A stretch of DNA of 32,000 bases, taken from NCBI RefSeq assembly GCF_001458695.1, contig NZ_LN885086.1:540001-572000 (forward strand). The letters are read 5' to 3'. This document shows, in pieces, positions 9,892-31,108 of the stretch. The position numbers and the translations under genes were made by a program. Source of the DNA: Candidatus Nitrospira inopinata (GTDB lineage Bacteria; Nitrospirota; Nitrospiria; Nitrospirales; Nitrospiraceae). The notes under the pieces are model-generated. The model saw nothing but the letters and a program-made list of their open reading frames with translations, did no database searches and was not told the DNA's origin. Each line of letters begins with the position of its first letter. Within the stretch, counting starts at the first letter, position 1.

Positions 9892-9904
9892 CCGGCCCGC
9901 CTCA

Positions 9905-12066: not shown

Positions 12067-12075
12067 CGTCCTGCC

Positions 12076-14598: not shown

Positions 14599-14654
14599 TT
14601 GTCATCACTCTACCAGAAAAGACGGCCTTTCGTCTCCCCCCGTCCCGCCATTTT

Positions 14655-15503
14655 TTAAGAATGACGGGACTTCGCCCCAAGGAACCGAGGCCGATCCCGC
14701 ACCGAGACCATCTTGACCAGATCCCGAACCGACAGCACGCCGACGATCTTGCCGTTCTCCCTCACGGCCAGGTGGCGCACGCCCCGCTCGGCCATCACGC
14801 GGCTGGCATCACGGATCGTCCGGTTGACGTCGATGCTCAGAAGCGGCGAGCTCATCATCGAGCTGACACGAATTGTTCCTCCATCCCGATTCGAGGCCGC
14901 CCCCTTCCGAATCAAATCGCTCTCGGTGACGATCCCGACCAGCTCTCCCGCCTCGACCGTCAACAAGGAGCCGATGCGTTTGTCTCGCATCTGCCGAGCC
15001 GCTTCAAGCACGGACGCCTCGCTCCCGATCGTCGCCAGGTCGGTGGCCATCAGGACGCTGAGCGGTCGATAGACGCGATCCAGTTCGCTTACGGGACCGC
15101 CCTCCGTGTCCACGAATGATCGGACCAGATCCCGCACGGAGATCAAGCCGGCGACTTCTCCTCCCTCCACCACGCAGAGGTGGCGAATGTGATTGGTCTC
15201 CATCATATGACTGGCGTCCAACATGGTGCGATCGCTCGCGATCGTGATGATGGGGCTATTCATCACCTGATCCACCATCGTGACCGTGGGATCCGTCCCC
15301 GCGGCGATCACCTTCCGCACCACGTCCGTTTCCGTCACGATTCCGATCGGTCCTCGACCCGGCTCGCCGGACTCGACCAAGACGCAACCGACGCGCCGGA
15401 CTCCCATCCGTTCCGCCGCGAACGACACGGTCGTGTCCCGCGGAACGACCTCCAAATAGCGACGCATGAAATCCTTAATGAGTCCGCCTTCCTGTCCACT
15501 CAT
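14655..15503 (-). CDS. Stand-alone protein with four CBS domains (two Bateman modules)
   Basis: Four repeats ending GIVTETDVVRK, GLISVRDLVRS, GIVTESDLIRK and GVLSVRDLVKM. The start is set at ATG 15503 (MSGQEGG..), which has AGGAG 5 nt upstream. The ORF-track ATG 15590 has no SD. Confidence 0.85.
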   Translation of the reverse strand: MSGQEGGLIKDFMRRYLEVVPRDTTVSFAAERMGVRRVGCVLVESGEPGRGPIGIVTETDVVRKVIAAGTDPTVTMVDQVMNSPIITIASDRTMLDASHMMETNHIRHLCVVEGGEVAGLISVRDLVRSFVDTEGGPVSELDRVYRPLSVLMATDLATIGSEASVLEAARQMRDKRIGSLLTVEAGELVGIVTESDLIRKGAASNRDGGTIRVSSMMSSPLLSIDVNRTIRDASRVMAERGVRHLAVRENGKIVGVLSVRDLVKMVSVRDRPRFLGAKSRHS

Positions 15504-15805
15504 CTCCACTCCTCGCTCCCGTTGAATGGCCTCCTCCCGGCGCAAGCCGGGAACGCCTCGGCCTTCTTGCGCCTCGGCCCATTTGCCCATTTTGATGGGC
15601 CGTCACTATACCTGATTATGATGAAACTCGCACCTGAGCCCATCGGGCTATAGCCGGGCCATAGCCAAAAAATCGGCTTCTCGACGAGAAGGCAACGCGG
15701 CGATACGACGCACGTTGCGACCGCGATCGTCCTCCATCGTCCGCTCCGCAGCCGAACCGCCTTTCGGTTGAATCAACGCGGAGTGTTGGTTACTCTCTAG
15801 CGGCA

Positions 15806-18800
15806 ATGAAACCGCTCAAAATTCTCGCCGTCGCCTGCGTCGCGCTCCTGATCATACTGGCAGGCACCGTAGCCGCGATTCGCTTCTTCTTTCCTGCCGA
15901 CCAAATCCGCAAGCAATTGGAGCGCACCTTGTCGGAGCACCTTCAAGGAACCGTGCGCATCGCCGCTTTGGAATGGGAGCTGCTGCATGGCATCCGCCTC
16001 GGTAACATCGAAATAGAAAGAAACGGCGTACCCCTCGCTCGGTTTGATCGCCTGTCGCTGCGCTACCGACTCCTCCCCCTTCTTCATGGAACAGTGGCCG
16101 TCGACGAGCTGGCGCTGATCCAGGCTGACGTCTTTGTTGATCTCGCTCTTTTCCCCGCCCCATCCCAAGCGGAACCACCCCCGCGCCGCGACGAGCCGGT
16201 CGTCCTTCCGACGCTCCCCCTGTCGGTCAACATCGAATCCATCCGCATTGAACACTCTCATGTCACCATGGTCGGTCATGACGACCTCCGTCTCACCTTG
16301 CGCGACGTCACTCTGACGTCCCGCTTGCACGCCGGCCCGAAGACCGCCGACTTGTCAGGGACTCTGGATATCGCCGACATCGAAGCGTTTGTGAACCAAC
16401 ACCGGTGGCGGCTCCCTCTGCACCTCGCCTTTACCCTCTCTGTCGATTTCCCGATGGAACGACTGGTTCTTGAACGGGTGGAGATCCGGTGCGATCCCGT
16501 AATCAGTCTCGCTGCCACCGGCCGGGTCGATCATCTTGTCTCCACCCCGACTGTGACGTTTTCTGTCCAAGAAAGCCAACTCGACTTGGAGGGGCTTGTG
16601 TCATTGGCACAGCCGTTTCTCCCTCCCCCCCTCGCTGGTGCGCGGCTGGCGGGAACGATCTCTCCCTCGCTTACCATCGCCGGCTCCCAAACCGACAGGG
16701 GATTCGACGGGGCGATCCGGCTCGACATCAACGGCCGTGACATTCGCGGATCGGCGCCCTCGTTTGGACTCTCCCTTGAGTCCACGTCTTTTCAGGTGCG
16801 GACCGGCGAGATTCCCGTTCACGCCAACCGTCCCGGTCCCATCCATGCCGACCTCTCGGTCAACATGACCGGCATCACCGCGGGAGCGGCCTCCGTGCGA
16901 GACTTGGCTTTCGGCCTTCAAGCCGACCGGAGCGAGGCGGGGCGACTCGCCGCCCATGTCACCATGAAGGGTCTGGTCTCCGCCGCACTTGAGCCGGCCG
17001 GGCCACGCCTCTCGGAGCCGCTCACGCTCGACGTCGAAACATCCGGAGACGAAACGGCCTTGTCCTTCTCTTTGACCAGGGTGGAAGCGACCGTCGGCGA
17101 CCTCGTGAGTCTCGTTGCGAACGGCACCGTCGGTCCGCTGGGAGAAGCGGGCAAACAAGCACAGGAACAACGCCCCTTTTCCTTGCGCGCCGCTGTCCGA
17201 AGCGACGCCGGTAAACTGTTTCGAGCCCTACCCCCCTCGCTCCGCCAAGGGTTCGGGCTCACGGCTCATGGCGCCCCCCAAACAGCCTCGCTCAACGTAA
17301 CCGGTTCGCTTGATGCCGACTGGCGTCCGCTGCGGGCCGAGGCCACCCTATCCCTCGACGCGGCGGACCTTCACGCCGTTCACGTGGTTTCGGCAGAACA
17401 GCGGCTTGAAGGGACCTTGGACCGGCTGACCCTTGCGCTGCGGACTGCGTATCACGCCAAGAGCGAATCGCTCAAGGGAACGGTTGACGGATTGATCAGG
17501 CTCTCACACCTGCGGCAAGGAACAACCGCAACCGTTGGAACTGTCTCCGTCACGCTCAACGGCGACATCAACGGCCGCGTAGGATCGGATTTTGCCGTCC
17601 GCCGCCTCACGGCCAGCAACCGCTTGACCTCGGAAATCCGCGATGTCCGATACGAAACTCCCACGATGACCGGGACATTCAACCACCTGACCGCCTCAGC
17701 CAAGGCCCACGGAGACCTGATTGACGGCCCCTACGTGCTGAACGAGGCCCGCCTCACCGTCGGACAGTTGCTGGACGGCAGGGTCTCCGGAACATTCAAT
17801 CCTCGAACCCAACGATTTGCCTTCGACATCGCCGTTCCCTCGCTCAACGTGGCTGAAATTCAACACCACATGACAGGACCTGCCGTGGAGTCCCTTGCAG
17901 CGGTCAAACCGTCAGGACAGCTCTCGATGCGAATCGGCGGCTCAGGGACGATCCCCACGCCGGACGACGTGGCCCAACTCACCATTCCCGTCCAGGCTTC
18001 CGCGCAGGTCGCCCTCCAGCACGTGGGAGGCTCGTTCCAAGGTCATGGGATCACAGGAGCAACCGGCACGATCAGTCTATCCGTCGAACCGCCGGAACAG
18101 CAATCGACCAAGCGCCAGGTGATCACAACCTCGTGGAAGCTCAAAACAGACCGATTGGATCTTGGCGGAGACGCCCCCGTTAAACACCTCGAGAACTTGG
18201 CGCTGGCGCTGGACGGGTCGATCGAATCCTTCGACCGGCTCACCCTTGAGCGATTCGTCCTCAGCGCCGACGGGCTCGACGCCTCGATCGACACGGAATT
18301 GTCGGGGATCAAACGGTTTCTGAACAGAAAGGAAGGGGCGCCTTGGCTCGAGGGGCTGGGTCCTCTCTTCGTCAAATCCAATCTCCAGGCTACGCTCGAT
18401 CTCGACCGGTTCGCGGATGCCGTCCGATCGTTCGGCGTGGCCGGGTCCGGGCGAGCCGGGCTCGCCCTGGTCCTCAATAAAAAAGAGCGGGGGCCGCTCG
18501 ACGTGCGGGTGACGGTGCTGCCTCATCGGTTGTCCATAGCCCAAAGAGAACAGCACGTCGAGGACTTGGACGGTGCCATCGAGCTCCGCAAGGTGCTTCA
18601 GTGGATGTCGCCTTCCGACAAACAGGCTCGTGAAGCCGAGTTTCGACCGACCGGCCTCCTTCCCGACCTTCATCTCACCGCGCCGGCGCGACGGGACATT
18701 CGTATCAGATTGGTCAAGGCCGGGCCCATCGAGGTCCGCAATCTGTCAGGACACCTGTTTCTTGACCAGAATCGCCTGGTCGTTCACAACCTGGCCATGA

Positions 18801-19363
18801 ACCTGCTCGGCGGAGGGCTTGGCGGCGAGGTCACGGGCACGGGCGGCAAGGCCTTTCGCGTGGACCTCCGGATGGAAGCAGCGGGACTGGACACGAATCA
18901 CCTGCTGCCGGCGGGCGAGCAGATCCCCGGCGACAGTCTGATCGATGCCACCGTGACTGGAACCCTCGCCTTCGACGACCAACAGGGCCGCCTCGATTTT
19001 GGCAAGAGCGTATTGGACCTATCGCTCACCAGAATCGGGCGTCACACATTGGACCGATTGCTCCGGTTTCTCGACCCGACCGGCGGCAACCCGTCGATCA
19101 TCGGCGCCCGTTCCGCAGTGAAGCTGGCGAATCCAGCTTCCGTCCGCATCACGATGTCCAAGGGGCTGGTCGCCATCCGCATACGATTTCAGGAGGGACT
19201 GCTCTCCCGTTTTGAGATGGACCGAATTCCAGCGGGCCAGATGAAACAGATCCGCGACCTCACGGCGACCATCCCACAATGGAACGATCTTCGTCGTCTC
19301 ATGGCCCTGTTGGGAGCAGAGCGATATGGAGTGGATCAAGCAGGCGGGTTTGTTTTAGAGTGA
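15806..19363 (+). CDS. AsmA-superfamily, YdbH-like intermembrane (inner-to-outer membrane) bridge protein
   Basis: N-terminal membrane anchor MKPLKILAVACVALLIILAGTVAAI followed by ~1150 aa of repetitive beta-rich sequence. The C-terminal part (..VHNLAMNLLGGGLGGEV..NHLLPAG..SVRITMSKGLVAIRIRFQ) resembles the YdbH C-terminal region as I remember it. A DUF1318/YdbL-like gene follows 4 nt downstream, as in the E. coli ydbH-ynbE-ydbL operon. Confidence 0.7.
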   Translation: MKPLKILAVACVALLIILAGTVAAIRFFFPADQIRKQLERTLSEHLQGTVRIAALEWELLHGIRLGNIEIERNGVPLARFDRLSLRYRLLPLLHGTVAVDELALIQADVFVDLALFPAPSQAEPPPRRDEPVVLPTLPLSVNIESIRIEHSHVTMVGHDDLRLTLRDVTLTSRLHAGPKTADLSGTLDIADIEAFVNQHRWRLPLHLAFTLSVDFPMERLVLERVEIRCDPVISLAATGRVDHLVSTPTVTFSVQESQLDLEGLVSLAQPFLPPPLAGARLAGTISPSLTIAGSQTDRGFDGAIRLDINGRDIRGSAPSFGLSLESTSFQVRTGEIPVHANRPGPIHADLSVNMTGITAGAASVRDLAFGLQADRSEAGRLAAHVTMKGLVSAALEPAGPRLSEPLTLDVETSGDETALSFSLTRVEATVGDLVSLVANGTVGPLGEAGKQAQEQRPFSLRAAVRSDAGKLFRALPPSLRQGFGLTAHGAPQTASLNVTGSLDADWRPLRAEATLSLDAADLHAVHVVSAEQRLEGTLDRLTLALRTAYHAKSESLKGTVDGLIRLSHLRQGTTATVGTVSVTLNGDINGRVGSDFAVRRLTASNRLTSEIRDVRYETPTMTGTFNHLTASAKAHGDLIDGPYVLNEARLTVGQLLDGRVSGTFNPRTQRFAFDIAVPSLNVAEIQHHMTGPAVESLAAVKPSGQLSMRIGGSGTIPTPDDVAQLTIPVQASAQVALQHVGGSFQGHGITGATGTISLSVEPPEQQSTKRQVITTSWKLKTDRLDLGGDAPVKHLENLALALDGSIESFDRLTLERFVLSADGLDASIDTELSGIKRFLNRKEGAPWLEGLGPLFVKSNLQATLDLDRFADAVRSFGVAGSGRAGLALVLNKKERGPLDVRVTVLPHRLSIAQREQHVEDLDGAIELRKVLQWMSPSDKQAREAEFRPTGLLPDLHLTAPARRDIRIRLVKAGPIEVRNLSGHLFLDQNRLVVHNLAMNLLGGGLGGEVTGTGGKAFRVDLRMEAAGLDTNHLLPAGEQIPGDSLIDATVTGTLAFDDQQGRLDFGKSVLDLSLTRIGRHTLDRLLRFLDPTGGNPSIIGARSAVKLANPASVRITMSKGLVAIRIRFQEGLLSRFEMDRIPAGQMKQIRDLTATIPQWNDLRRLMALLGAERYGVDQAGGFVLE

Positions 19364-19367
19364 TGGC

Positions 19368-19985
19368 ATGTTCAGAAAAACGACGGGCTACCAGTCGCCG
19401 GAAACAACCACGTCATTGAGCCGGAACCACGGCCTACGGGTGGCCATCGTGACCTACGGGATCACACTCGCCGGCTGTGGCGGGCCGCTCGTTGGTGTGA
19501 CGATCGTCGATGAAAAGACCGCGCTGGAAAATCAGGTCCTGGGCACCTACCAGGAATTGAATCAGGAAGTGCTGCTCGTCGCCTCGGTCCGTTACATTGA
19601 CCCCTCAGGCAAGTTAGTGCCGCAGCCTCCCATCCCACCGAGCAAAGAAGCGGCCATCCGCGCCATGCAACGGTCGGCTTTCAACAGGGACGACATCGAC
19701 CGGCTCAAGGCGGAAGAGATCCTGGGCGAAAATCTGGAGGGGAGACTGAGTATTCTGGCCCTGGAGAAGGTTTCCGCCGATCGCCAGGCCTTCGTCAAAA
19801 ACCTCGTGGAGGAGGAAAACGCCGACCGAGAGACACTCATGCAGCGGGTCTTGACGACCAACGAGACCTTCACGCCACAGGACCTGCCGAAAATACGACG
19901 TACCTTCGCGGCCCTCAACCGAGACCGAGCCCGTTCCGGAGACTGGATTCAACGGGAAGATGGGCAATGGGTCCGCAAACCCTAA
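19368..19985 (+). CDS. Lipoprotein with a C-terminal DUF1318 (YdbL-like) domain and an extra N-terminal segment
   Basis: Lipobox ITLAGC. C-terminal LKAEEILGENLEGRLSIL...EENADRETLMQRV...RARSGDWIQREDGQWVRKP matches the remembered YdbL pattern (GxVGE..GYL ... R.ALY ... G.W.Q...G.WV.K). Confidence 0.65.
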   Translation: MFRKTTGYQSPETTTSLSRNHGLRVAIVTYGITLAGCGGPLVGVTIVDEKTALENQVLGTYQELNQEVLLVASVRYIDPSGKLVPQPPIPPSKEAAIRAMQRSAFNRDDIDRLKAEEILGENLEGRLSILALEKVSADRQAFVKNLVEEENADRETLMQRVLTTNETFTPQDLPKIRRTFAALNRDRARSGDWIQREDGQWVRKP

Positions 19986-19998
19986 TCTGAGATGGTCT

Positions 19999-22900
19999 AT
20001 GAATCCGGCGGCGAAACGGATTTGGCTCTGGGCCTTGCTGACACCGGCGTTGGCGGCAAGCCCAATCCAAGCAGCCGGTGGGGACGGCAATCCCGAACGG
20101 CTGACGAGCCATCCGGCACTGGAGTACGCCGGCTCGCCTTCGGCTGACGGCCGTTTTCTTGCCTTTGTCTCGGAACAGAACGGCAACGCCGACATCTGGC
20201 TCAAATCCTTGACCGCCGGGATCTCCTCACTGCCCCGCCCCTTGACGACCCATCCGGGGAAAGATACGGCCCCGGCCTTGAACGAGAACGGCTCTTCACT
20301 CCTGTACGTGTCCTATCGATCGGACCCCCGCGGGGACATTTATCTGTTGGATGTCCCGACCGGCAAAGAGACCAGGTTAACCGATGAGCGACATGGCGAT
20401 TTGGCTCCGGCGTGGGGTGGAGACAAGGCCATTTATTTCTTGCGGGAACAGGAGAACTCCGGCGACCGAAGTCTCGTCCGCCTCTCACTCAGAACCGGGG
20501 CCATCGAACCGATCATTGAACGGGTGACATCCTACGCCGTGGGGCCGAATGGCACCATCGTTCATTCAGACGGCCGCCGATTATGGGTTCGCCTTCCTTC
20601 CTCATCGTCCGCTCCGCGCCCCCTCACGAGCGGCGACGTCGTGGACACGTCACCGGCGTTTGTGGACGACACCACGGTCGTGTTCACCCGCTATCAAGAT
20701 GACACGAACGGCGATGGGGTCATTGACGCGGACGATGAATCGTCCATTTATCTTGCAAGCTGGGATAAGGCGACTGGAGCACGAACCAGCCTCTACCGCC
20801 TCACCCCGGGGCAGGAGTTTCATGCCTATCCGGCCGCGAGCGGCTCGTATGTGTATTATTCGGACTTGAAGAGAAAAGACATCTATCGGTTGAACCTGAA
20901 GGAGTTTTTCGCGATCTATGCCGATCTGGCGCGCGCTCGCGAATCCGCCGCGATCCTGCTGGATCGGGGCGAGACCGAAACGGCCCTGCTCATCCTCACT
21001 AACATCTCCGCCAATCTCGCTTTGCAACTGCCGGCGGCGGAACGGGCCTCGTTCGACTTGGCACTGGTGGAGCTGTTGCGCGACGCGCGACGGTACGGAG
21101 CCGCCAAGGGTCTCCTGGCCCGCTCTGCGACGGCCGAGCCGAACGTCAGCGGGAACCACATTGGACCGATCGCCCGGGTGACATTGTCGGTCGTCCGCAT
21201 CGAAGAACGGGCCGCTCTTATGAGCCCGCGCGAACTCACACGGGCTGTCGAGGAGACGAGCAAGGAGCTGTCGGCCCTCGCGCGGCAGAGCGGACAGGAT
21301 GACACCCTTCGAGGAACCGTTTTTCTGGAAATCGGCCGCCTCCGTTTGTTGACCGAAGACCCGCTAAGCGCACTCGACGCCCTGACCCAAGTCGACAGCG
21401 TCGCCAATGACGAACTGCGGGCACGGGCCCTCTTCACCAGGGCCTCCCTGTACCGCCGCCTCGGAGAGCGGGACAAACTCCTGCACGTCCTTCTTGACGT
21501 CATCGCTTCATTCGGCGACCGAAGCTTTTGGGGCCGGAGGGCTGCGGCTCAAGCCGTGGCGATTGCCGACGACCAGGAAGACTTCCGAAAAGCCATCGCA
21601 TCCCTCACGACATTGGCCGAGGCCCATCGAACCCTTCCCTACCTGGCTGCCTCCGCCCTCCTACGCGCGGCGGACCGTGCCTACGAACAGGGCGAAGTGC
21701 TGAGGGCTGTCGAACTGTTGGACCGGGTGATTCGGGAATTCCCTGAACAGACCGCCCCGGTCGCCGACGCCTATCGGAAGAAGGGCATGATCCTCACCTC
21801 CGCCCAGCGGTTTGATGAGGCAGCCCATGCTTATGAAGCGCTGGTGAACTTGACCGGTCACAGTCAGGAGGAGCTGGAACGGGCGAAAACCCTGATGGTG
21901 CTTCAGTTGGTGCGGAGCGCACTTCGAAAACGGGAACTCGGGGAGGTCCGGATCGCCGCGAAGGACCTGCGGCAACTCGTCGAAACCTATCCCGATTCGG
22001 TCGAGGCCCATCGCGGCTACATCGAGACGAAAGTCATGCTCAAGGAATGGGACGAGGTGCGACAGTTCTACGAGAGCCTCGTCAAACAGGCCCCCGACAA
22101 CCCGACCTCTCGCTATGGACTCGGTCTGGTCCTGTCCTACGCCCCTCAGCCTAATTTCAATCTGGTCATCAAGACGATCCAGGAAGCGATCCGGCTCAAT
22201 CCCAAGATCTCTTACTTCCATCAAACGTTGGGCTGGGCCCATGAACAGACCGAACGGCTGGGCACACGCCATGCGCTCGAACAGGCGGAAGCGGAATATC
22301 GCCTCGCTCTGGAGCTGAACGACGGCTTTCTCTTTCCCGAGGTCGAGAACAATCTGCTGTTGAATCTCGGCAACATCTACATGAAGCTCGGCAATTTCAC
22401 GGAGGCCTATCGCCATTACGCGCGCCGCAAGGGCGGAGGCGTCGCCGATCGGGATCGCATGCGCGAACTGCTCTATCACAAGAATTACGGCGAGGCCTGT
22501 TTCAAAACGGGGCGGACGGAGGAATCCACTGTCCAGTACGAACGGGCTCTGGCGCTCGTGCCCGATGATCAGCCTCAGCTTCGCGCCGAGCTGTTGGAAC
22601 GACGGGGGCTGTCGCAACAAGAGGCCGGTTTGCACGCGCAAGCCGTCGAGTCCTTTTCGGAAGCCCTGGCGATCAACAATCGCCTGGGCCTTACGGACAA
22701 TCTGGCCCGCTTGAGCAGAAATGTCGGCGTCAATCTCTACAACCTGGGCGCCACGGTCTCCGACGGATCACGGGTCCCCCTTAAACGCGCCCTCAAAAGT
22801 CTGCTGGAGAGCCTGGAGACCGTCGATCGATTCGGTGTTACACAGAAAGTGGCAGGACCGGGGCTGATTCAGATCCAGGTCGGGCTGGGCGGAAACGCCG

Positions 22901-25900
22901 GCGGAGCCGCCGCCGGCTTTGATCGGCGCGGGGAAGAAAAGCTCCTGTTCAGCTTCATCGCCCGTGCGTACGAAGACTTGTCGGAGCCTCAACCGGCCAA
23001 GGAATACTACGAGAAGAAATTGGCTCTGATCCAGCCGGCCGGCGACTCACCGCAGGCGGTCGCGGCCCGCGCCGAGGAAGCGGTGGTGCTCAACCGACTG
23101 GCCGTGCTGAGCCATGCGCTGGGCCAAACCGACGAGAGCATCCGATACCTGGAGCGATCGCTCGCCCGCACGCGCGAGCTGGGGTTGGACTACGGCACAA
23201 CGGTCAATCTCTATAACCTCTCCCGCCTGGCGGCGGAGCGCCGCATGGCTGGTGAGGCCATCACGCCCAACTTGATCGACATTCTCACCGAGGGAGTCCA
23301 GGCCTTACTCCGAGACTCACAGCCAGACCGGTTGACTCTCTTGCTTCTTTCCAACGTGGCCTTTGTGTTGGCAGCGATGGACGAAGGCACGGTACCGGCA
23401 GGCCAGCCATTGGAGCTGGTCGCCCAAACGATCCACCATGTCGCGCGCGCGCGCCAGGATGCAGTCACATTCCTGAAGCGAGCCCTGGACCTCATTGAGC
23501 AGCACAAGGTCCTCTCAGGCGAAGAAGCCGATCGGCTGAAACTGATCCTGGCTCTGAACCTGTGGGATTTGGCAACCCAGGCAGGCCATGCCCCCACGGT
23601 GGAAAAGCTGGATGGCCTCATCACCGCCCTGGCCGCACAACGGCCGTCTCCCTTCGCCTGGCTGCCTCTGTTTCTGAAGGCGGAACGAACCGCCGATCTG
23701 AACCAGCGAACGGCGTTGCTCACGGAAGCGGCAGGTACGCTGCTTCGTGATCCCTCCCACCTGTTCAGCACGGGTGGGCCCGACACTCTGCCGTTGTTGG
23801 ACGGCCTGGCCTCCCTCACGACCGAGGCCTTGATCAACGGCGGCCGTATCGAGACGGCATTCGAGCTCGGCGAGCAACTCGCCATGCGAAAAACGGCCAT
23901 GCTGCTCGCCAAACGGTTCGGGGTTGATTTTCTTCTCTCCCACATCGGCGACTACGAGACAGAGTTCCGCACTATTGTGGAACAGATGCAGGCTGCTGCA
24001 AGCGAGGGGCAGACTCAGGAACTGAACCGCCTCAACGAGCAATTTCGTGAATTGACCTTCGCTCTGTATGAAGACTATCCCTGGGCCGTGTCGTATCTGC
24101 ACGAATATGAGCCGGCGCCTCATGTCCTGTCCGATGTGCTTCGGCCCGATACCCCCTATCTCAAAGTCACACCTGGCGCTCACGGCCTTCACGTCCTTCT
24201 TCACAGCGGCGAGACGGTCCGCCATGTCCATCTGCCACGCTCTTCAAATCAACCGCCGAGCTTCGATGCGGTGGTATCGCTCCTTGAGAAGGCTTCGGCC
24301 ATCTACCTGTCCTTGCCGACACATCTGCGTAACGTCATCCTCCCATGGCTCCCCAAACATGCCACCCTCGTGGAGGTGGCGTCAGTGTATGATGTGGTGA
24401 ACGCCTACCGGCTTCGAACTCTGTTTGCCTCCAGAGTCGCCATCGCCGGCGACGTGCCTTTCACCATGAAGGAAAGAGAGCCGGACAATACCTTCGTTCG
24501 GCTGACCGGCGACAGGACCCACGACAGGCCATTGTTGGAAAACCGGCATATCGTCGTCACCACGGGCCCCTACCACGACAACGGATTCGTCATCGGCTCC
24601 GACCGTGGTGTCCGTGAGCTGGTGCCCATCACAACCTTGGCAGGCAGACATCGCCATACGGCCATTCTGATGAACCATCGTGTCGATCCGGACACGATGC
24701 GGCTCATCCTGGCGCCGGCTCTGATCCGAGCCGGGTTCCCTCATATCCTGGCCACATCGGGAATGGCAGCAGGCGATCGGTCCGTCGCCGCAGACAAGTG
24801 GACACCGGACCACACACAGGCCTTCGTCATCTCCTATCTCCAATCGGTTCAATCCCAGCGAGTTGATCGCGCCGCGGCCGCTGCGCCGCGGGAAGTAACC
24901 AACCAGAAGGCCACACATCCTTCTTTCCGACTCTACGGCTACATCGGCATGACCCAGGAGGAAAAGGCCTCCTTCGCCGAATCCGAATATCAACGCGCCG
25001 TCTCCGACGCCGTGACAGCCTATCAAGCCAAACAGATGGAGATCGCCCTGCGCCGGGCGGAGGATGCCCTCTCCATCCTTCCCTTGACCAAGGCCGGTCA
25101 TGACTTTCCCAAATTGACCGAGTTGGCCGTGGAGGCGGCCTTCAAGATCGGAAACTACCGCGCGGCGGTAACACACCAGTCTCGGCTGGTCGAACAGCTC
25201 ACCACCACGGGAGATCAGGGGACCTTGGCGGAGGCCCGGTACCGTTTGGGCATCCTGTATTCCCGACTCGAAGAATTCCAACCAGCCCTGGTTCACCTTG
25301 AGGCCGCCATCAACGAGTGGCGGACGCGCGATGAACTGGACCGTTTGGCGGAGGGCGTCGCCACGTTGGGAGTGGTCAAGGAGAACATGGGAGCCTACCC
25401 GGAGGCGCTCGACGCCTTCGGACAGTCGTTTGAGCTGTATCAGGAACTGGGCGAGCCGTTGGACGTGGCGGCCCAGCATCGGCGGATCGGCCGCATCCAC
25501 TATCTCCGTCTGGGACGATATGAGCGGGCGCGGCATCACTTTGCCGCCGCGCTTGAGCAATACCGAAAACAGGGAGCGCGTCGTCTGGAGGCGGAAACCC
25601 TGTACGAGATCGGCCTCACTTATGACAAAATCGGTCTCTACGAGGAAGCGGACCGGCAGTACCTCGAAGGCCGCGCCATCGGCACGGAGTTGCAAGACTC
25701 AGCCCTTCTGGCCACCGGTTCGCTCTATCTGGCCAACACGGCCTGGTATCGAGGCCAGTATCAAGCGGCCTTCGACCATCTCGAAGCAGCGACCAAAGAG
25801 GCGGAACGGGCGCAAGACCCTCGACTCCCGATCATGATCGCGAACACGAGGGCGCTCCTGTACTGGACACTCCACGATCTCGACAAGGCCTTGGTCTATG

Positions 25901-27804
25901 CGGAACAGGCGGTTTCTCTCGCGGAACGGGCCGAGATCAAGGAGGAGATCGCGTCCTCCCATAACAATCTCGGCCTCATGTTGCGCGAGCGGGGCAAGCT
26001 CGACATGGCCTTGGACCATTTCGAACGGGCAAGACAGATCGATGAACAGCAACAGAGCCGATGGGGACTGGGCTATGACCACCGGAACATCGGCATCGCC
26101 CTGATGAAACTGGGACGGCTGGCCGACGCGCGAGCCCACTTCGAATCGGCGGAACGACACAGTGCGGCGATCAACAACATCGACAACTGGGTCAAGGCCC
26201 TGCTGGAACTGGGCAATGTCCATCGCGAGACCCAGGACTATGACACCGCGCTCGACTACTACCGCCGCGCCTATGACCTGTCCAAACGGTATCACATGAA
26301 GGACGTGCTCTGGCGAGCGGCGGCCGGGCAGGGGTCGGTGTTTCGGCTGAGCGGGAAGAAGACCGAAGCGGTCGAGCCCTATCGCGAAGCAGTCGAGATC
26401 GTCGAGAGCATGAGGGCCACCCTGACAGTTGAAGAGTTCCGCAACAGCTTCCAGACCAAGACCCAGGACCTCTATCGCGACCTGGTCATCCTGTTGATCG
26501 AACTGGGGCGCACCGACGAATCGTTCAACTATCTGGAACGGTCTCGATCGCGAAGTTTCATCGACCTTCTGGCCAACCAGAAGCTCAACTTCAAGACTCA
26601 AGCCGATCAACACCTGCTCGATCTGGTCGTGGATCTTCAGACGAAGCTCGACGCTCTCTCAAAAGAACAGGCTTCGTTCGAGCAGCCTCCTGTCGATCTT
26701 GTCACCCGCGTCCGACAAGCCAAGACGGCTTATGAGGAAGCATTGGTTCGCCTCAAACGGGCCAGCCCGGAACTGAGCACGTTCGTGGCGGTCGATCCAC
26801 TGACGATCGAACAGGCTCAGAAACTGCTTGAGCCGGGTGTCGGACTTCTCTCCTACAAGGTCACGGACGACCATGTCTATCTGTGGCTGATCACGGCGTC
26901 GGGAACCAGGTTCTATCGGACTCCGACCGCCGCTGGAGAAATCGATCGATTGGTCAGAACCTATCGGGCCAGGGTCCAGAAAATGGAATCGGTCTCCGAA
27001 GAGCTGAGCCGGCTTTCTCACCTGTTGATCGAGCCGGCTGCTCAAGACTCGGAGGGGTTGCGATATCTCGGTATCATCCCCGACGGGCCGTTGCACTTCC
27101 TCTCGTTCGCGGCCCTGCCTCTCAACACCGGCTCGTTGATCGACGCCTATCCCATCTTCTATTCGCCCTCGGCCTCGGTCTTGAAATTCACCTTCGCCAA
27201 ACGTAAGGACACGAAACACGCCAAAATCCTGGCGATCGGCAATCCGGATCTCGGCAATTACAATTATCAACTGCCGATGGCCGAATTGGAGGCGCGTAGT
27301 ATCCGATGGGAATTCCCGAATCTGGACATTCTCACGGGCGCGACGGCCACCAAGGAATGGTTGATCACCAACGTGTCTCGATACGGAGTCATCCATCTGG
27401 CCACTCACGGGGAATTCGACGACGTCAATCCTTTATTATCGTCGCTCTGGCTGGCCTCACCCAACCCGAACAACCGAAGGCTCACGGTGCGGGAGGTATT
27501 CGGCCTGACGCTGAACGCCGACCTCGTCACCTTGAGCGCCTGCCAGACCGGGCTCGGGCGGTTGGAAGCGGGCGAATTGATCGGTTTGAACCGCGCCTTC
27601 ATGTACGCCGGCACCCACACGTTGGTATCGGCGCTCTGGCGCGTGGACGACTTGGCGACCTCCCTGCTCATGAAACACTTCTATCGCAACTACGCGCGCC
27701 TGGACAAAGCCATGAGCCTTCGGCAGGCTCAATTATTGATCAAAAAGGACTTCCCTCATCCGGCCTATTGGTCGGGGCTGGTATTGGTGGGAGATTACCG
27801 GTAA
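19999..27804 (+). CDS. Giant exported multidomain protein: signal peptide, TolB-like PD40 beta-propeller, TPR array, degenerate CHAT-like module, second TPR array, active C-terminal CHAT (caspase-fold) protease
   Basis: Uninterrupted 7.8-kb ORF. The start is set at ATG 19999 (MNPAAKRIWLWALLTPALAASPIQAAG, a classical signal peptide). The ORF-track ATG 19960 overlaps the previous gene. PD40 repeats (SPSADGRFLAFVSEQNGNADIWL; NENGSSLLYVSYRSDPRGDIYLLDV). Dozens of 34-aa-type A/L/Y/G/R helical repeats. CHAT dyad VIHLATHGEF / LVTLSACQTG. Confidence 0.9.
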   Translation: MNPAAKRIWLWALLTPALAASPIQAAGGDGNPERLTSHPALEYAGSPSADGRFLAFVSEQNGNADIWLKSLTAGISSLPRPLTTHPGKDTAPALNENGSSLLYVSYRSDPRGDIYLLDVPTGKETRLTDERHGDLAPAWGGDKAIYFLREQENSGDRSLVRLSLRTGAIEPIIERVTSYAVGPNGTIVHSDGRRLWVRLPSSSSAPRPLTSGDVVDTSPAFVDDTTVVFTRYQDDTNGDGVIDADDESSIYLASWDKATGARTSLYRLTPGQEFHAYPAASGSYVYYSDLKRKDIYRLNLKEFFAIYADLARARESAAILLDRGETETALLILTNISANLALQLPAAERASFDLALVELLRDARRYGAAKGLLARSATAEPNVSGNHIGPIARVTLSVVRIEERAALMSPRELTRAVEETSKELSALARQSGQDDTLRGTVFLEIGRLRLLTEDPLSALDALTQVDSVANDELRARALFTRASLYRRLGERDKLLHVLLDVIASFGDRSFWGRRAAAQAVAIADDQEDFRKAIASLTTLAEAHRTLPYLAASALLRAADRAYEQGEVLRAVELLDRVIREFPEQTAPVADAYRKKGMILTSAQRFDEAAHAYEALVNLTGHSQEELERAKTLMVLQLVRSALRKRELGEVRIAAKDLRQLVETYPDSVEAHRGYIETKVMLKEWDEVRQFYESLVKQAPDNPTSRYGLGLVLSYAPQPNFNLVIKTIQEAIRLNPKISYFHQTLGWAHEQTERLGTRHALEQAEAEYRLALELNDGFLFPEVENNLLLNLGNIYMKLGNFTEAYRHYARRKGGGVADRDRMRELLYHKNYGEACFKTGRTEESTVQYERALALVPDDQPQLRAELLERRGLSQQEAGLHAQAVESFSEALAINNRLGLTDNLARLSRNVGVNLYNLGATVSDGSRVPLKRALKSLLESLETVDRFGVTQKVAGPGLIQIQVGLGGNAGGAAAGFDRRGEEKLLFSFIARAYEDLSEPQPAKEYYEKKLALIQPAGDSPQAVAARAEEAVVLNRLAVLSHALGQTDESIRYLERSLARTRELGLDYGTTVNLYNLSRLAAERRMAGEAITPNLIDILTEGVQALLRDSQPDRLTLLLLSNVAFVLAAMDEGTVPAGQPLELVAQTIHHVARARQDAVTFLKRALDLIEQHKVLSGEEADRLKLILALNLWDLATQAGHAPTVEKLDGLITALAAQRPSPFAWLPLFLKAERTADLNQRTALLTEAAGTLLRDPSHLFSTGGPDTLPLLDGLASLTTEALINGGRIETAFELGEQLAMRKTAMLLAKRFGVDFLLSHIGDYETEFRTIVEQMQAAASEGQTQELNRLNEQFRELTFALYEDYPWAVSYLHEYEPAPHVLSDVLRPDTPYLKVTPGAHGLHVLLHSGETVRHVHLPRSSNQPPSFDAVVSLLEKASAIYLSLPTHLRNVILPWLPKHATLVEVASVYDVVNAYRLRTLFASRVAIAGDVPFTMKEREPDNTFVRLTGDRTHDRPLLENRHIVVTTGPYHDNGFVIGSDRGVRELVPITTLAGRHRHTAILMNHRVDPDTMRLILAPALIRAGFPHILATSGMAAGDRSVAADKWTPDHTQAFVISYLQSVQSQRVDRAAAAAPREVTNQKATHPSFRLYGYIGMTQEEKASFAESEYQRAVSDAVTAYQAKQMEIALRRAEDALSILPLTKAGHDFPKLTELAVEAAFKIGNYRAAVTHQSRLVEQLTTTGDQGTLAEARYRLGILYSRLEEFQPALVHLEAAINEWRTRDELDRLAEGVATLGVVKENMGAYPEALDAFGQSFELYQELGEPLDVAAQHRRIGRIHYLRLGRYERARHHFAAALEQYRKQGARRLEAETLYEIGLTYDKIGLYEEADRQYLEGRAIGTELQDSALLATGSLYLANTAWYRGQYQAAFDHLEAATKEAERAQDPRLPIMIANTRALLYWTLHDLDKALVYAEQAVSLAERAEIKEEIASSHNNLGLMLRERGKLDMALDHFERARQIDEQQQSRWGLGYDHRNIGIALMKLGRLADARAHFESAERHSAAINNIDNWVKALLELGNVHRETQDYDTALDYYRRAYDLSKRYHMKDVLWRAAAGQGSVFRLSGKKTEAVEPYREAVEIVESMRATLTVEEFRNSFQTKTQDLYRDLVILLIELGRTDESFNYLERSRSRSFIDLLANQKLNFKTQADQHLLDLVVDLQTKLDALSKEQASFEQPPVDLVTRVRQAKTAYEEALVRLKRASPELSTFVAVDPLTIEQAQKLLEPGVGLLSYKVTDDHVYLWLITASGTRFYRTPTAAGEIDRLVRTYRARVQKMESVSEELSRLSHLLIEPAAQDSEGLRYLGIIPDGPLHFLSFAALPLNTGSLIDAYPIFYSPSASVLKFTFAKRKDTKHAKILAIGNPDLGNYNYQLPMAELEARSIRWEFPNLDILTGATATKEWLITNVSRYGVIHLATHGEFDDVNPLLSSLWLASPNPNNRRLTVREVFGLTLNADLVTLSACQTGLGRLEAGELIGLNRAFMYAGTHTLVSALWRVDDLATSLLMKHFYRNYARLDKAMSLRQAQLLIKKDFPHPAYWSGLVLVGDYR
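20101..20900 (+). other. TolB-like PD40 beta-propeller domain of the giant protein
   Basis: Repeated pattern [S/N]xDG..[LI]xFxS.R.G..D[IL][WY]..: DGRFLAFVSEQNGNADIWL, GSSLLYVSYRSDPRGDIYLL, GDKAIYFLRE, GTIVHSDGRRLWV, DDTTVVFTRYQDD..., GSYVYYSDLKRKDIYRL. Confidence 0.7.
26815..27801 (+). other. Catalytically intact CHAT domain of the giant protein
   Basis: GLLSYKVTDDHVYLWLITASG ... YLGIIPDGPLHFLSFAAL ... YSPSASVL ... ILAIGNPD ... HLATHGEF (His codon 27406-27408) ... LSACQTG (Cys codon 27541-27543) ... LNRAFMYAGTHTLVSALWRVDD ... HPAYWSGLVLVGD: the complete ordered CHAT motif series. Confidence 0.88.
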
Positions 27805-27826
27805 AGTACGAAAGGCGAGAGAGGCG

Positions 27827-28351
27827 ATGATGCGTGACCGACGTGTGTGTCTGGCGATGGTGACCTTGGGAACGGCCCTGGCGCTGGTTCCCTCTCTTCT
27901 GTTCGCTCAGACCATGTACGTGAGCCGGGATGAGGTCAAGCTGACAGAGGAAAAATCTCCCACCTCCAAGATCGTGGAGACGCTCCGTCGAGGAGCCCAG
28001 GTTCGGGTCATCGAGAAGAGCGACCGCCATTTCAAAGTGCAAGCCCCCTCCGGAAAAACCGGCTGGGTCTTTAAGTTTACGCTGAGCGATCAACAGGTCG
28101 GCGGAGGAAGCGGCGGGAATCTCCTCTCCGCGGTGACGGGCGACACCCGCATCGCGGCCCGCGAAGCCGGCACCGGCGGCAGCATCAGAGGATTGAAAGA
28201 AACCTCGGAACGGTACGCGACGACCAAACGAGTCGATCAGGCAAGCAAAGACGCAGTGCAGAGGATGGAAGACCGCATCATCCCGCGGGAAGAGCTGCTC
28301 AAGTTCCAGCGGGAAGGATCGGTCGGAGAATTTTCGGGGGAGACGCCATGA
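27827..28351 (+). CDS. Secreted bacterial SH3 (SH3b) domain protein with a Gly-rich linker and a charged helical tail
   Basis: Signal peptide MMRDRRVCLAMVTLGTALALVPSLLFA|Q. SH3b pattern MYVSRDEVKLTEEKSPTSKIVETLRRGAQVRVIEKSDRHFKVQAPSGKTGWVFKFTL. Its stop overlaps the start of the M48 gene (ATGA at 28348-28351). Confidence 0.7.
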   Translation: MMRDRRVCLAMVTLGTALALVPSLLFAQTMYVSRDEVKLTEEKSPTSKIVETLRRGAQVRVIEKSDRHFKVQAPSGKTGWVFKFTLSDQQVGGGSGGNLLSAVTGDTRIAAREAGTGGSIRGLKETSERYATTKRVDQASKDAVQRMEDRIIPREELLKFQREGSVGEFSGETP

Positions 28352-29322
28352 ACGGAACCATGAAGCGGATCATGAAGAGAACATGGATGGTCACGTTTGT
28401 GTCTCTCGCGTTGGTGAGCGGGACCGTGGACCAATCATGGGGGATTTTGGACCAACTGCTCTCGCCTCCCGCCGAAAAGAAACCAAGCCAACCAAAAGGC
28501 CAACCCCAACCCTCCGAGCAAAAGGGTCTGGTTGACGGGATCGGCGGATTGCTGGGAGCCAAGGAGAAAGACATCGGCCTCATCAAGAAGGGACTTAAGG
28601 CCGCCCAGGCCCTTCAGCCGATTGGGCTTGAAGAAGAGATTGCCATCGGCCAAGCCGTGGCCATTGAAGCGTTCGCCCGATTCGGGGGCGAATACAAGGA
28701 CGAAGCGCTCACGACCTATGTCAACTTGGTGGGAAGGACCGTCGCGGAGGTCTCGGATCGGCCAGAACTGACCTACCGGTTCGCGATTTTGAACAGCCGC
28801 GAGCAGAACGCCTTCGCGGCGCCGGGCGGCTATATCTTCGTCACGATCGGCCTGCTCAAGACACTCAAGAACGAGGCCGAGCTGGCCGGCGTGTTGGCGC
28901 ACGAGGTCGCGCACGTCACGCAAAAACACATGCTGAAGACGCTCCAGCGAAGCGCGATCCTGGCCAACGTGTCCGAATTCAGCTTGAGCGCGATGAACAA
29001 GGATCCCAAATTGTTCTCGAATGTCATCGATGCGGCGACCGACATGCTGTTCGAAAAGGGGCTCGACAAGGAGATGGAGTTCGAGGCCGATACCGTTGGA
29101 ATGGAATACACCTACCGAGCCGGCTACCATCCGAACGGTTTGAGAGATTACCTGGCCACGCTCAAGGCACAGGAGGGAACGGCCGACTCGCGATTCTTCT
29201 CAACCCATCCCTCGACCGGAGAACGATTGAGGCGGGCAACGGACACGGCGAGCCGTTACACGGGAGCAAGCAAGTACCCCTATCTGACTGAACGGTTTCG
29301 CTCGCGCATGGGCCCGGCATAG
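28348..29322 (+). CDS. Secreted M48-family zinc metalloprotease (LoiP/BepA-like catalytic domain, no TPR domain)
   Basis: Signal peptide, then NAFAAPGGYIFVTIGLL, the HExxH site LAHEVAHVTQKH, a downstream Glu (EFEAD) and the conserved FSTHPSTGERL tail. Confidence 0.9.
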   Translation: MNGTMKRIMKRTWMVTFVSLALVSGTVDQSWGILDQLLSPPAEKKPSQPKGQPQPSEQKGLVDGIGGLLGAKEKDIGLIKKGLKAAQALQPIGLEEEIAIGQAVAIEAFARFGGEYKDEALTTYVNLVGRTVAEVSDRPELTYRFAILNSREQNAFAAPGGYIFVTIGLLKTLKNEAELAGVLAHEVAHVTQKHMLKTLQRSAILANVSEFSLSAMNKDPKLFSNVIDAATDMLFEKGLDKEMEFEADTVGMEYTYRAGYHPNGLRDYLATLKAQEGTADSRFFSTHPSTGERLRRATDTASRYTGASKYPYLTERFRSRMGPA

Positions 29323-29439
29323 ATTGACTCCCTATCGGCTCGGACGCACGGACACCGAGGCGGGCGAATCTTTTTTGATGCCCGGGACTCCTACCAAGAG
29401 GGAAGCCCTTGTATAATGAAACGTAAAAGGAGGTGAGCA

Positions 29440-29601
29440 ATGACACAGGGTCTTGTTGAGGGAGCCCTCGCGATCAGCGCCGTGGCGTCGCTGCTGACGA
29501 TCTTTGTGATCTCCTTGGGAATCATGAAGGTCGGGACGCCGGAGAGGGTTGCCATTCCAGCAGAGAGCCGGCGTTCTCGTCGGAGAAGCGTTCGGGAATA
29601 G
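29440..29601 (+). CDS. Small single-TM protein (53 aa), hypothetical
   Basis: Below the ORF-track cutoff; translated by hand as MTQGLVEGALAISAVASLLTIFVISLGIMKVGTPERVAIPAESRRSRRRSVRE. A strong SD AAAGGAGGTGA ends 5 nt before the ATG. A perfect TATAAT at 29412-29417 lies 22 nt upstream, with no convincing -35. Confidence 0.4.
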   Translation: MTQGLVEGALAISAVASLLTIFVISLGIMKVGTPERVAIPAESRRSRRRSVRE

Positions 29602-29612
29602 CCCGCCTACCC

Positions 29613-29658
29613 CGGAGGCCGCAGTCTCCACACTGAGGTTCTCGGAACTCGGCCTCCG
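29613..29658. terminator. Hairpin between convergent small genes; possible terminator
   Basis: CGGAGGCCG (29613-29621) pairs perfectly with CGGCCTCCG (29650-29658), a 9-bp stem. The loop is a long 28 nt with a small inner CTC/GAG pairing. The downstream tract is T-rich but not a clean U-tract. Confidence 0.3.
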
Positions 29659-29726
29659 TCGGTGTCTCTGTCTTTCTCTTCCTGCCGCTTTCGAATCCCG
29701 CAACGGTCGGATTTCCCGTTTCCTCC

Positions 29727-30023
29727 TCAGCCGGGCGGGGTCGAGAGTTTCCACGCCACGATCAGCGCGATACCGGCAGCGATGATCGCAAGCCCGATCA
29801 TCCATCGGGTAAATTTCCGTTGCGCGTCGGCCACCACCTTCTCCATTTTCTTCTTGAGGGCCGGTTGGGAAGCCACATAGGTCTCGACCAATTCCTTGGC
29901 TTCCTTGAAACCGATCTGCCGCTCTCGGCGCACGGCCGTGATCGCTCCGATCAGATCGCCGCGTCGAAGCGCTTCGAGCGCCGCTTTGGGAAGATCGACT
30001 GAACGTCGGGTTATATTGGCCAT
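29727..30023 (-). CDS. Small membrane protein with an L7/L12-C-terminal-like motif plus a C-terminal TM helix; paralogue of 14314-14598
   Basis: DLPKAALEALRRGDLIGAITAVRRERQIGFKEAKELVETY closely resembles the AIK.VR...GLGLKEAK.LVE helix pair of the ribosomal L7/L12 CTD. It is followed by the TM helix WMIGLAIIAAGIALIVAW. The start is set at ATG 30023 (MANITRR..) by analogy with the paralogue. The ORF is open up to 30125. Confidence 0.6.
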   Translation of the reverse strand: MANITRRSVDLPKAALEALRRGDLIGAITAVRRERQIGFKEAKELVETYVASQPALKKKMEKVVADAQRKFTRWMIGLAIIAAGIALIVAWKLSTPPG

Positions 30024-30235
30024 GAGGAATTGCGATGCCCCCAGAGAGAGAACGTTATCCAGACCCGTGAACGGGCCGGGAAATCCTATCTCGATCGGAG
30101 ACGGATTGCCAAGCCTTTGGGTCATGAACGTCCACGAATCTTGCGTTATGATTCAATGGCGTCCCGTCACACGTCGGGATCTCGGCGGACCGGCATGACG
30201 AAGCGCGTCAATCGATACCAAGACGAGACGAGTGA

Positions 30236-31108
30236 ATGAACGGCCTCTCTTTCCGGCTGCACTGGATGCTGCCCGCACTTTTTCCGCTCGCCCTCACGGC
30301 CTGTTCGTCGGCGGCATTCACCGTCGCCAATCTCCCCACGTACTTTGAAGAGATCACGGTCGTGCGGGACCAGATGTACGGACCGGACCCATCGCATCTG
30401 CTGGACATCTACACGTCGGCTCATGCGTCGAATCAGCTTCGGGAAGTGATCGTCTTTTTCTACGGAGGCCGTTGGACGGAAGGGACCAAGAATGATTACC
30501 GGTTCATTGGCGCAACCTTGGTCAGTCGCGGCTATATCGTCGTCATCCCCGACTACCGAAAGTATCCGGATGTCCGCTTTCCGACGTTCGTCGAAGACGG
30601 AGCCAAGGCGCTCGCGTGGGTTCATGACCATATCGCCGAATGGCAAGGCGATCCTCAACGCATCCACGTCGTGGGGCATTCGGCCGGAGCTCACATCGGC
30701 GCGCTGCTTGCCGCCGATGCTCATTATTTAGCCGACGCGGGAAAAGATCGATCCATCATCCGTGATGTCGTCGGGCTGGCCGGCCCCTACTCGTTCACCC
30801 CAAGCGATCCCGACTTGCAAGACCTGTTCGGCCCTCCGGCCAATTACCCGAACATGCAGGTGACCACGTTCATCGACGGCGCCCAGCCGCCGATGCTGTT
30901 ACTGCACGGCGAGGCCGATACGAGGGTGAAGCCGTACAATCTGGAAAAGCTCCGACAACGCATCACCGAACAGGGCGGTTGCGTGCGGGCGATCGTCTAT
31001 CCGGACGTCGGACACAGCGGCATCCTCGCCGCCTTGTCTTGGCTCAACCCCAGTTCGGCACCCGTCGTCGAGGATATCGTGCGGTTCTTTCACTCCTGCG
31101 AATCGTGA
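30236..31108 (+). CDS. Lipoprotein alpha/beta-fold hydrolase (esterase/lipase-like)
   Basis: Lipobox LALTAC. Oxyanion-region FFYGGRW, nucleophile elbow VVGHSAGAH, acid LLLHGEADTRV and His in YPDVGHSG. Confidence 0.85.
   Translation: MNGLSFRLHWMLPALFPLALTACSSAAFTVANLPTYFEEITVVRDQMYGPDPSHLLDIYTSAHASNQLREVIVFFYGGRWTEGTKNDYRFIGATLVSRGYIVVIPDYRKYPDVRFPTFVEDGAKALAWVHDHIAEWQGDPQRIHVVGHSAGAHIGALLAADAHYLADAGKDRSIIRDVVGLAGPYSFTPSDPDLQDLFGPPANYPNMQVTTFIDGAQPPMLLLHGEADTRVKPYNLEKLRQRITEQGGCVRAIVYPDVGHSGILAALSWLNPSSAPVVEDIVRFFHSCES

Follow-up and report, generated by a model that had tools for sequence, protein, structure and literature searches.

Among the key quality-control enzymes of the cell envelope and of membranes are M48 zinc proteases, for example BepA, HtpX, Oma1 and Ste24. 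BepA (YfgC) of Escherichia coli is a periplasmic M48 enzyme of the BAM pathway with a C-terminal TPR domain. LoiP (YggG) and YcaL of the same species are small periplasmic lipoproteins that lack TPRs and show that this absence is ordinary among envelope M48 enzymes; to our knowledge, no SH3 partner has been described for either of them. A putative zinc peptidase of Geobacter sulfurreducens solved by structural genomics (Q74D82, PDB 3C37) is also TPR-less and soluble and has about 250 amino acids (aa). Here we describe a gene pair of Candidatus Nitrospira inopinata that encodes an SH3b-domain protein and an M48 protease. It lies in a stretch of 32,000 nucleotides (nt), called the window below, that covers positions 540,001 to 572,000 of contig NZ_LN885086.1 (assembly GCF_001458695.1, forward strand). 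The interpretation we favor, to which we would give an even chance, is that the pair constitutes a self-contained two-part periplasmic protease module that was recruited in Nitrospirales into an envelope operon with a giant CHAT-domain protein. The module part of this interpretation is more likely to hold than a specific tie to CHAT.

The window M48 enzyme shares with BepA an exported, soluble M48 fold, the HExxH motif, the ExxAD glutamate and the C-terminal HP...R motif, but it has no TPR domain, is accompanied by a separately encoded SH3b partner and stands in a different gene context. A Pfam scan finds the Peptidase_M48 domain (PF01435, aa 122-299, E = 4.4e-32, 111.9 bits against a gathering cutoff of 20.3), with neither a TPR nor any second domain, and the chain ends 25 aa past it. 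Its best PDB match is 3C37 (5.3e-31 over aa 90-300), which it resembles in being soluble and TPR-less, and BepA comes second (6SAR and 6AIT, about 2e-17; 1.8e-17). None of the three M48 types compared here fits. The BepA model (NCBIfam NF052400) scores 102.7 bits against a cutoff of 570 and its C-terminal TPR is missing; the LoiP/YcaL lipoprotein type (NF052399; LoiP 1.6e-12, 47.5 bits against 365) would need a lipobox cysteine that the window enzyme does not have; and the best HtpX model reaches 38.3 bits against 369 for a protein with a single N-terminal hydrophobic segment. The partner carries a Pfam SH3_3 domain (PF08239, aa 41-83, E = 3.2e-7, 30.8 bits against 27), and its family profile matches the SH3b structures 2KRS and 2KT8. 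It is not a YgiM-type SH3_and_anchor protein (TIGR04211), since that model scores 32.5 bits against 65, aligns to the SH3 part alone and is contradicted by a hydrophilic C-terminus. A family profile search of the PDB found no relative of the C-terminal part of the partner.

The original prediction had described an ATGA stop/start overlap joining the two genes, signal peptides on both products, a full set of M48 motifs on a chain without TPRs, and a TPR-rich CHAT giant directly upstream. All of these features are present. Direct reading confirms the overlap and the gene pair, and the giant (PD40, TPR and CHAT domains) ends 22 nt before the SH3b start. A GGAG sequence is located 5 nt upstream of the M48 start, an alternative in-frame ATG at 28372 has a weaker Shine-Dalgarno sequence, and in the close homologue P0004 the overlapping start is the sole possible one for the protease. 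By eye, both N-termini look like Sec signal peptides, in which positively charged residues are followed by a hydrophobic run and then by a cleavage site with small residues: MMRDRR, the run and then LFA before QT in the partner, and KRIMKR, the run and then SWG before ILDQ in the M48 enzyme. The latter has only one hydrophobic segment and no lipobox cysteine, there being no cysteine in its N-terminal 40 aa. An alignment of 13 orthologues, which share 57-85% identity with the window M48, shows no variation at the catalytic residues H185, E186, H189, E244 and D248 of ExxAD, H287, P288 and R293. The enzyme therefore looks catalytically competent; these residues also align to 3C37. The predicted mature N-terminus (aa 33-61) holds a conserved (I/F)LDxLLxPPxxK motif in which P40 is invariant and K44 nearly so, followed by a low-complexity Pro/Gln/Lys stretch. 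This proline-rich segment could be a ligand of the partner SH3 domain.

The pair recurs widely. We scanned one genome per GTDB species with the M48 alignment as query and took the closest 80 loci of at least 600 pattern matches; the proportions given here describe that sample alone. Gene calls in these comparisons are longest open reading frames (ORFs), and the hidden Markov models (HMMs) are home-made, with the partner HMM built from sequences shorter than 260 aa. The 80 loci span Nitrospirota, Nitrospinota, Elusimicrobiota, Beta- and Gammaproteobacteria, Desulfobacterota, Acidobacteriota and Gemmatimonadota. In 72 of them the partner HMM finds a separate, full-length SH3 partner ORF directly upstream of the M48 gene, and such loci occur in Nitrospirota, Nitrospinota, Beta- and Gammaproteobacteria, Desulfobacterota and Gemmatimonadota. 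Of the 72 loci, 32 have a 4-nt overlap of the partner stop with the M48 start, 12 have one of 16 nt and 9 have one of 1 nt, and because these values recur among so many species the overlap exceeds chance. Independent gene callers return the same 4-nt or 1-nt overlaps. The ATGA in the window and its conservation may reflect translational coupling of the two cistrons.

The window partner matches positions 9-167 of the 183 in the family HMM, with a gap to the M48 gene of -4, and residues R121, G122 and L123 of its RGL motif are 96-100% conserved among 71 sequences, on a par with the GW motif of the SH3 domain. HExxH is intact in all stand-alone M48 relatives. Among apparent additional members, a second SH3 ORF (L080:8698-9204) was judged spurious, as it was found by a fusion-contaminated HMM alone and aligned poorly, and one blast neighbor cluster (cluster 2) was discounted as antisense ORFs overlapping M48 genes. 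The SH3 protein and the M48 enzyme would form a dedicated-partner protease module. The pair is undescribed in the searchable literature, where we found no M48 protein with a dedicated, separately encoded SH3b partner.

Structure models that hold both parts on one chain are single-chain AlphaFold2 predictions, read by their predicted local distance difference test (pLDDT) and predicted template modeling (pTM) scores. A natural SH3-M48 fusion (P0176; pLDDT 84.7, pTM 0.72) is modeled with an SH3 barrel, a disordered linker and two partner-derived helices at a pLDDT of about 96. Its M48 fold matches 3C37 and BepA, with a template modeling score of about 0.42 for BepA in Foldseek. In an artificial chimera of the window partner and the mature M48 enzyme (pLDDT 81.2, pTM 0.68), partner helices 138-163 reach about 95, and the linker preceding RGL and the proline-rich M48 N-terminus are disordered. 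Both models are compatible with a partner-protease complex and do not demonstrate one. We propose that the partner and the secreted zinc endopeptidase would be made together from their overlapping cistrons and probably form a complex in the periplasm. The C-terminal RGL/helix part of the partner may bind and hold the protease, and the SH3b domain may supply targeting or regulation.

Outside the Nitrospirales clade the commonest neighbor of the pair is a CHASE2 adenylate/guanylate cyclase. Of 71 species loci, 47 have its gene no more than 1 kb away, and when the count is confined to loci with complete flanks the figure is 35 of 47. The gene is either just ahead of the partner gene or overlapping the M48 stop. 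A domain scan finds no CHASE2 gene in the window. In Sinorhizobium meliloti, the signal for the CHASE2 cyclases CyaK and CyaD1/D2 is protease-sensitive and requires the outer-membrane protein NsrA (PMC7529298, PMC13001267). That system resembles the present one in that relatives of the pair adjoin CHASE2 cyclases and that a betaproteobacterial cluster, described below, includes a gene for an outer-membrane protein (OMP)-like product. It differs in that the literature found describes no protease for it, and searches combining CHASE2 with M48, with CHAT or with periplasmic proteases returned nothing relevant in the searchable literature. Beside a CHASE2 cyclase, the module could plausibly make, trim or remove a periplasmic protein or peptide signal.

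Two further sets of loci were observed. An uncultured Nitrospira contig (L021:618-4210) encodes a CHASE2 cyclase, an SH3 partner and an M48 enzyme that is 49% identical to that of the window, and the Nitrospira lineage may thus hold two paralogous pairs, one linked to CHASE2 and the other to CHAT. In Acidobacteriota (L049:9929-11059, L072:9941-11089 and L076:4223-5404), the M48 protein has a C-terminal extension of roughly 130 aa and no SH3 partner. L049 and L072 adjoin one to three CHASE2 proteins, an MscS-type channel gene follows the M48 gene in L072 and L076, and in L072 this channel gene carries a cyclic-nucleotide-binding domain. These M48 proteins (376-393 aa) were rejected as fusions of the two parts, since the M48 domain is on the N-terminal side and the additional sequence is a C-terminal extension.

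In Nitrospirales the pair closes an envelope block of five genes. The closest described counterpart of the beginning of this block is ydbH-ynbE-ydbL of E. coli, which encodes an AsmA-like lipid bridge, an outer-membrane lipoprotein and a DUF1318 chaperone-like protein (PMC11126948; bioRxiv 10.64898/2026.03.16.712125). The window block opens with an AsmA/YhdP/TamB-like gene and continues 4 nt later with a DUF1318 gene. The AsmA-like match is confined to the N-terminus and below the gathering cutoff in Pfam (YhdP 2.4e-10, 39.4 bits against 46; AsmA 1.6e-6, 27.7 against 29.8), and NCBIfam gives TamB at 3.4e-5. The DUF1318 domain occupies aa 109-204 (1.3e-10, 42 bits against 27) of what is, unlike YdbL, a 205-aa lipoprotein, and the N-terminal 111 aa have no Pfam match, YnbE-like included, even at an E-value of 1. 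There is no separate YnbE gene, and the protein, with its roughly 100-aa N-terminal extension, may be a lipoprotein version or a fusion. The E. coli operon, unlike the window block, has no protease genes.

The third gene of the block encodes an exported giant. An ATG that follows the DUF1318 stop opens a signal peptide, MNPAAKRIWLWALLTPALAASPIQA, and the protein then comprises a PD40/Tricorn_N beta-propeller (PD40 5.4e-15), two TPR regions (TPR_12 7.1e-55) and a C-terminal CHAT domain (PF12770, 7.8e-57, 193.4 bits against 24). The His of HLATHG and the Cys of LSACQTG, which make up the caspase-like CHAT dyad, are invariant in 10 sequences. The giant shares its TPR arrays and intact dyad with TPR-CHAT proteases such as Csx29 of type III-E CRISPR systems and HetF-type proteins, but it is exported, carries the propeller, has 2,600 aa and lies in no CRISPR or NTPase context. 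A role of the CHAT operon in anti-phage defense was rejected, as PADLOC returned a generic TPR match on the giant only and none for the other four proteins.

Spacing and conservation suggest that these genes form an operon. All five are co-directional, with intergenic distances of 4, about 13, 22 and -4 nt in the window, and the N-terminus of every product holds an anchor, has a lipobox or resembles a signal peptide, the signal peptides being judged by eye. The order AsmA-like, DUF1318, PD40-TPR-CHAT, SH3 and M48 is kept in contigs whose M48 identity to the window is 85, 62, 60, 60, 59 and 58%. An AsmA-like gene is upstream in L001, L004, L005, L092 and L093, in L091 no Pfam match is recorded for the gene that precedes DUF1318, and DUF1318 is present in every Nitrospirales-clade locus with enough upstream DNA. 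The giant adjoins the pair in the window and in L001/2, L004/9, L005/6, L008, L011-13, L018, L091-93 and L094-95, at M48 identities down to 56-60%, and L007 and L010 have a partial CHAT gene at the contig edge; L001/L002, L004/L009 and L005/L006 are duplicate metagenome loci. In the genome scan the block holds in all nine Nitrospirales-clade species loci with upstream DNA; in two of them CHAT is partial at the contig edge, and one, with just 674 nt upstream, is uninformative. NCBI labels of metagenome-assembled genomes may be wrong, and L010, which is tagged Nitrospinota, falls inside the Nitrospirales clade. Homologues carry Nitrospira or Nitrospirales names, and the SH3b partner has 46 close homologues. 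Downstream of the block, the genes vary among the loci of the clade. In a scan of 15300-30300 the promoter-like sites did not exceed what shuffling predicts, and there was no convincing candidate for a terminator either between the genes or after M48, where a hairpin past the stop is no better than shuffles (z = -0.78). Because these scans were uninformative, the operon structure is read from spacing and conservation.

A second junction between CHAT and the SH3-M48 parts exists in Betaproteobacteria. Thiobacillus- and Gallionella-like members have a conserved eight-gene cluster (L087:2425-12308, L089, L090, L084:8650-18502 and L165) in the order SH3, SH3, active M48, OMP-like, TPR-CHAT, SH3-M48 fusion, CHASE2 cyclase and class-II phosphodiesterase-like MBL protein. 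The OMP-like protein has 413 aa, a signal peptide and an outer-membrane-barrel-like C-terminus. The exported TPR-CHAT protein has about 765 aa, and its CHAT domain is 38-39% identical to that of the window giant with the dyad intact. The gene for the fusion protein (about 410 aa) starts 0-2 nt after it. This fusion belongs to a family of proteins of about 400-418 aa that comprises at least 23 clusters, 47-93% identical, and in which Pfam finds SH3_3 and M48 on one chain. Divergent MlaE/MlaD genes were also seen adjoining the eight-gene cluster.

The association with CHAT is recurrent, and it is not obligatory in either direction. The original prediction had suggested that the M48 enzyme is recruited by, or forms a cascade with, the TPR-rich CHAT protein, and had named a wide occurrence of the pair away from CHAT or TPR neighbors as evidence to the contrary. 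Such an occurrence is largely what the loci show. Of the 71 species loci beyond the Nitrospirales clade, a single one has a CHAT neighbor and 70 do not; the SH3-M48 pair is older and wider than the CHAT link, and its constant partner is the SH3 protein. Nor does the missing TPR domain have the significance given to it, as TPR-less soluble M48 enzymes are common. The CHAT tie survives in part, being conserved within the Nitrospirales clade and echoed by the betaproteobacterial CHAT-fusion junction. The neighborhood of CHAT, SH3 and M48 was also correctly identified, but the unit is larger, with the AsmA-like and DUF1318 genes at its beginning having been missed. The reciprocal scan of metagenomes with the CHAT domain supports the non-obligatory relationship, because among giant-type relatives that share at least 47% identity SH3-M48 comes next in five loci (L094, L095, L098, L099 and L102) and does not in L096, L097 and L101. 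The same scan gave about 65 ordinary TPR-CHAT proteins, roughly 800 aa long, and none of these has an SH3-M48 neighbor. In L138 (126-4350), a CHASE2 protein directly follows an 825-aa CHAT protein, and neither an SH3 nor an M48 gene separates them, so a CHAT-CHASE2 link exists independently of the pair. A functional link of the pair to the CHAT protein in Nitrospirales is plausible. The module most likely acts there in the envelope pathway of the giant, where it could process the giant, be controlled by it or share substrates with it.

Several observations weigh against the interpretation of the pair as a recruited protease module. In Nitrospinota, the sister group of the Nitrospirales clade in a neighbor-joining tree, the pair stands amid housekeeping genes (dxs and leuS), as it does in some Burkholderiales (nth, rnfB-like and pyrD), and therefore a fixed pathway partner is not required. 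The Acidobacteriota relatives adjoin CHASE2 even though they have no SH3 partner. HExxH is degenerate in the natural fusions (REVAR, REVVH and REIAK), which are therefore pseudoproteases, and they show association of the parts and not a need of the active enzyme for its partner. Some giant-type CHAT genes, those of L096 and L101, lack the pair. Co-transcription is deduced from gene spacing only, and the gene order is kept inside one order-level clade and could in part be inherited synteny. The high pLDDT of the partner helices could be intrinsic to them and is not direct evidence of a complex.

The housekeeping contexts would also fit an explanation that we consider unlikely, in which the SH3-M48 pair is a general periplasmic quality-control protease comparable to YcaL, LoiP or BepA and its place after CHAT is inherited order that carries no function. 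The wide phyletic spread of the pair and the intact catalytic residues of all stand-alone enzymes are in line with such a function. The neighbors, however, are non-random, with CHASE2 cyclases frequently joined to the pair by a start/stop overlap. The flanking genes change around a five-gene block that itself persists, and the 0-2 nt junction in Betaproteobacteria represents a second occurrence of CHAT next to SH3-M48 sequences.

A somewhat less likely explanation is that the M48 enzyme is a split BepA that uses the giant's TPR arrays as a docking site in trans, with one protease cleaving the other in an activation cascade. The giant, SH3 and M48 genes are adjacent in all informative Nitrospirales-clade loci, the CHAT protein bears TPRs in both CHAT-linked lineages, and the protease domain of BepA has a fold like that of the M48 enzyme. 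This explanation is opposed by the 70 loci in which M48 and its partner have no CHAT neighbor, by a neighbor clustering that gave no recurrent TPR protein, and by 3C37, which shows that a soluble M48 enzyme is normal without TPRs. In addition, the copy that adjoins CHAT in Betaproteobacteria, being a pseudoprotease, provides no M48 cleavage step, and related giants exist without the pair. Less likely still is that the partner is instead a substrate or pro-signal that the M48 enzyme cuts at or near RGL to release a C-terminal peptide sensed by CHASE2 or, in Nitrospirales, by the PD40/TPR parts of the giant, because, although RGL is highly conserved and ends a Gly-rich segment for which the two models both predict disorder, the S. 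meliloti CHASE2 signal is protease-sensitive and needs an outer-membrane protein, the betaproteobacterial cluster has an OMP-like gene and we know of no identified CHASE2 ligand, the proposal is purely inferential, a substrate fused to a dead protease is hard to explain, and tandem duplicated partners and the 1:1 gene order suit a subunit equally well.

The protease-module interpretation could be extended to a broader proposal, in which we place little confidence. The pair would be an upstream component of CHASE2 receptors that makes or destroys their proteinaceous ligand, and in Nitrospirales it would have been rewired to the exported CHAT giant and the AsmA-like lipid bridge, giving a periplasmic two-protease circuit that reports on or repairs the outer membrane. 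The features that define the module are the invariant RGL, the overlapping cistrons and the natural fusions, and its recurring companions are CHASE2 cyclases and exported TPR-CHAT proteases. These loci offer entry points to the supply of CHASE2 signals, both in Thiobacillus and Methylotenera, which can be cultured, and in Nitrospira, the main nitrite oxidizers of soils and water treatment plants. They also open to study the role of a 2,600-aa periplasmic caspase-like protein beside an AsmA-like lipid bridge. For annotation, the SH3b-M48 pair should not be named BepA, and the five genes should be handled as one unit.

Table 1. Positions in the window of the SH3b-M48 pair, its envelope block and the flanking genes
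Feature	Position	Strand	Remarks
SH3b partner gene	27827-28351	+	174 aa; stop TGA at 28349-28351; order: signal peptide, SH3b, Gly-rich linker, RGL, C-terminal helices
SH3b domain of partner	27947-28075	+	
RGL motif of partner	28187-28195	+	aa 121-123
ATGA stop/start overlap, SH3b partner/M48	28348-28351	+	4 nt; read directly in the sequence
M48 gene	28348-29322	+	324 aa; ATG start at 28348
M48 predicted mature N-terminus	28444-28530	+	
M48 HEVAH motif	28900-28914	+	
AsmA/YhdP/TamB-like protein	15806..19363	+	1185 aa; first gene of block; N-terminal membrane anchor; N-terminus MKPLKILAVACVALLIILAG
DUF1318 (YdbL-like) protein	19368..19985	+	205 aa; lipobox LAGC
PD40-TPR-CHAT giant	19999..27804	+	2,600 aa; ATG at 19999; longest ORF from 19960
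CHAT domain of giant	about 27001-27795	+	C-terminal
Small ORF	29440-29601	+	53 aa; 118 nt past M48 stop
L7/L12 C-terminal-like match	29727-30125	-	132 aa; weak match
BD-FAE/alpha-beta hydrolase	30236-31108	+	E = 4.9e-30
HypF	6639-9020	-	
NiFe hydrogenase large subunit	9905-11227	-	
NiFe hydrogenase small subunit	11224-12066	-	
FAD/NAD + Fe-S subunit	12076-13026	-	
4Fe-4S subunit	12906-14042	-	
Four-CBS-domain protein	14655-15590	-	

A small ORF past the M48 stop may be a sixth, membrane-protein cistron of the envelope block. A strong Shine-Dalgarno sequence, AAAGGAGGTGAGCA, precedes its ATG, and the product has one hydrophobic segment. A gene of 53 aa is called at the equivalent site in L001-L003 and not in more distant loci.

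The remaining neighbors are not conserved with the operon or diverge from it. Downstream on the opposite strand is the gene with the L7/L12 C-terminal-like match, whose product ends in a C-terminal hydrophobic segment, and beyond it, on the plus strand, the BD-FAE/alpha-beta hydrolase, which is exported. Divergent from the envelope operon, a group-3-type soluble NiFe hydrogenase cluster extends over 6639-15590 on the minus strand, from HypF to the four-CBS-domain protein.

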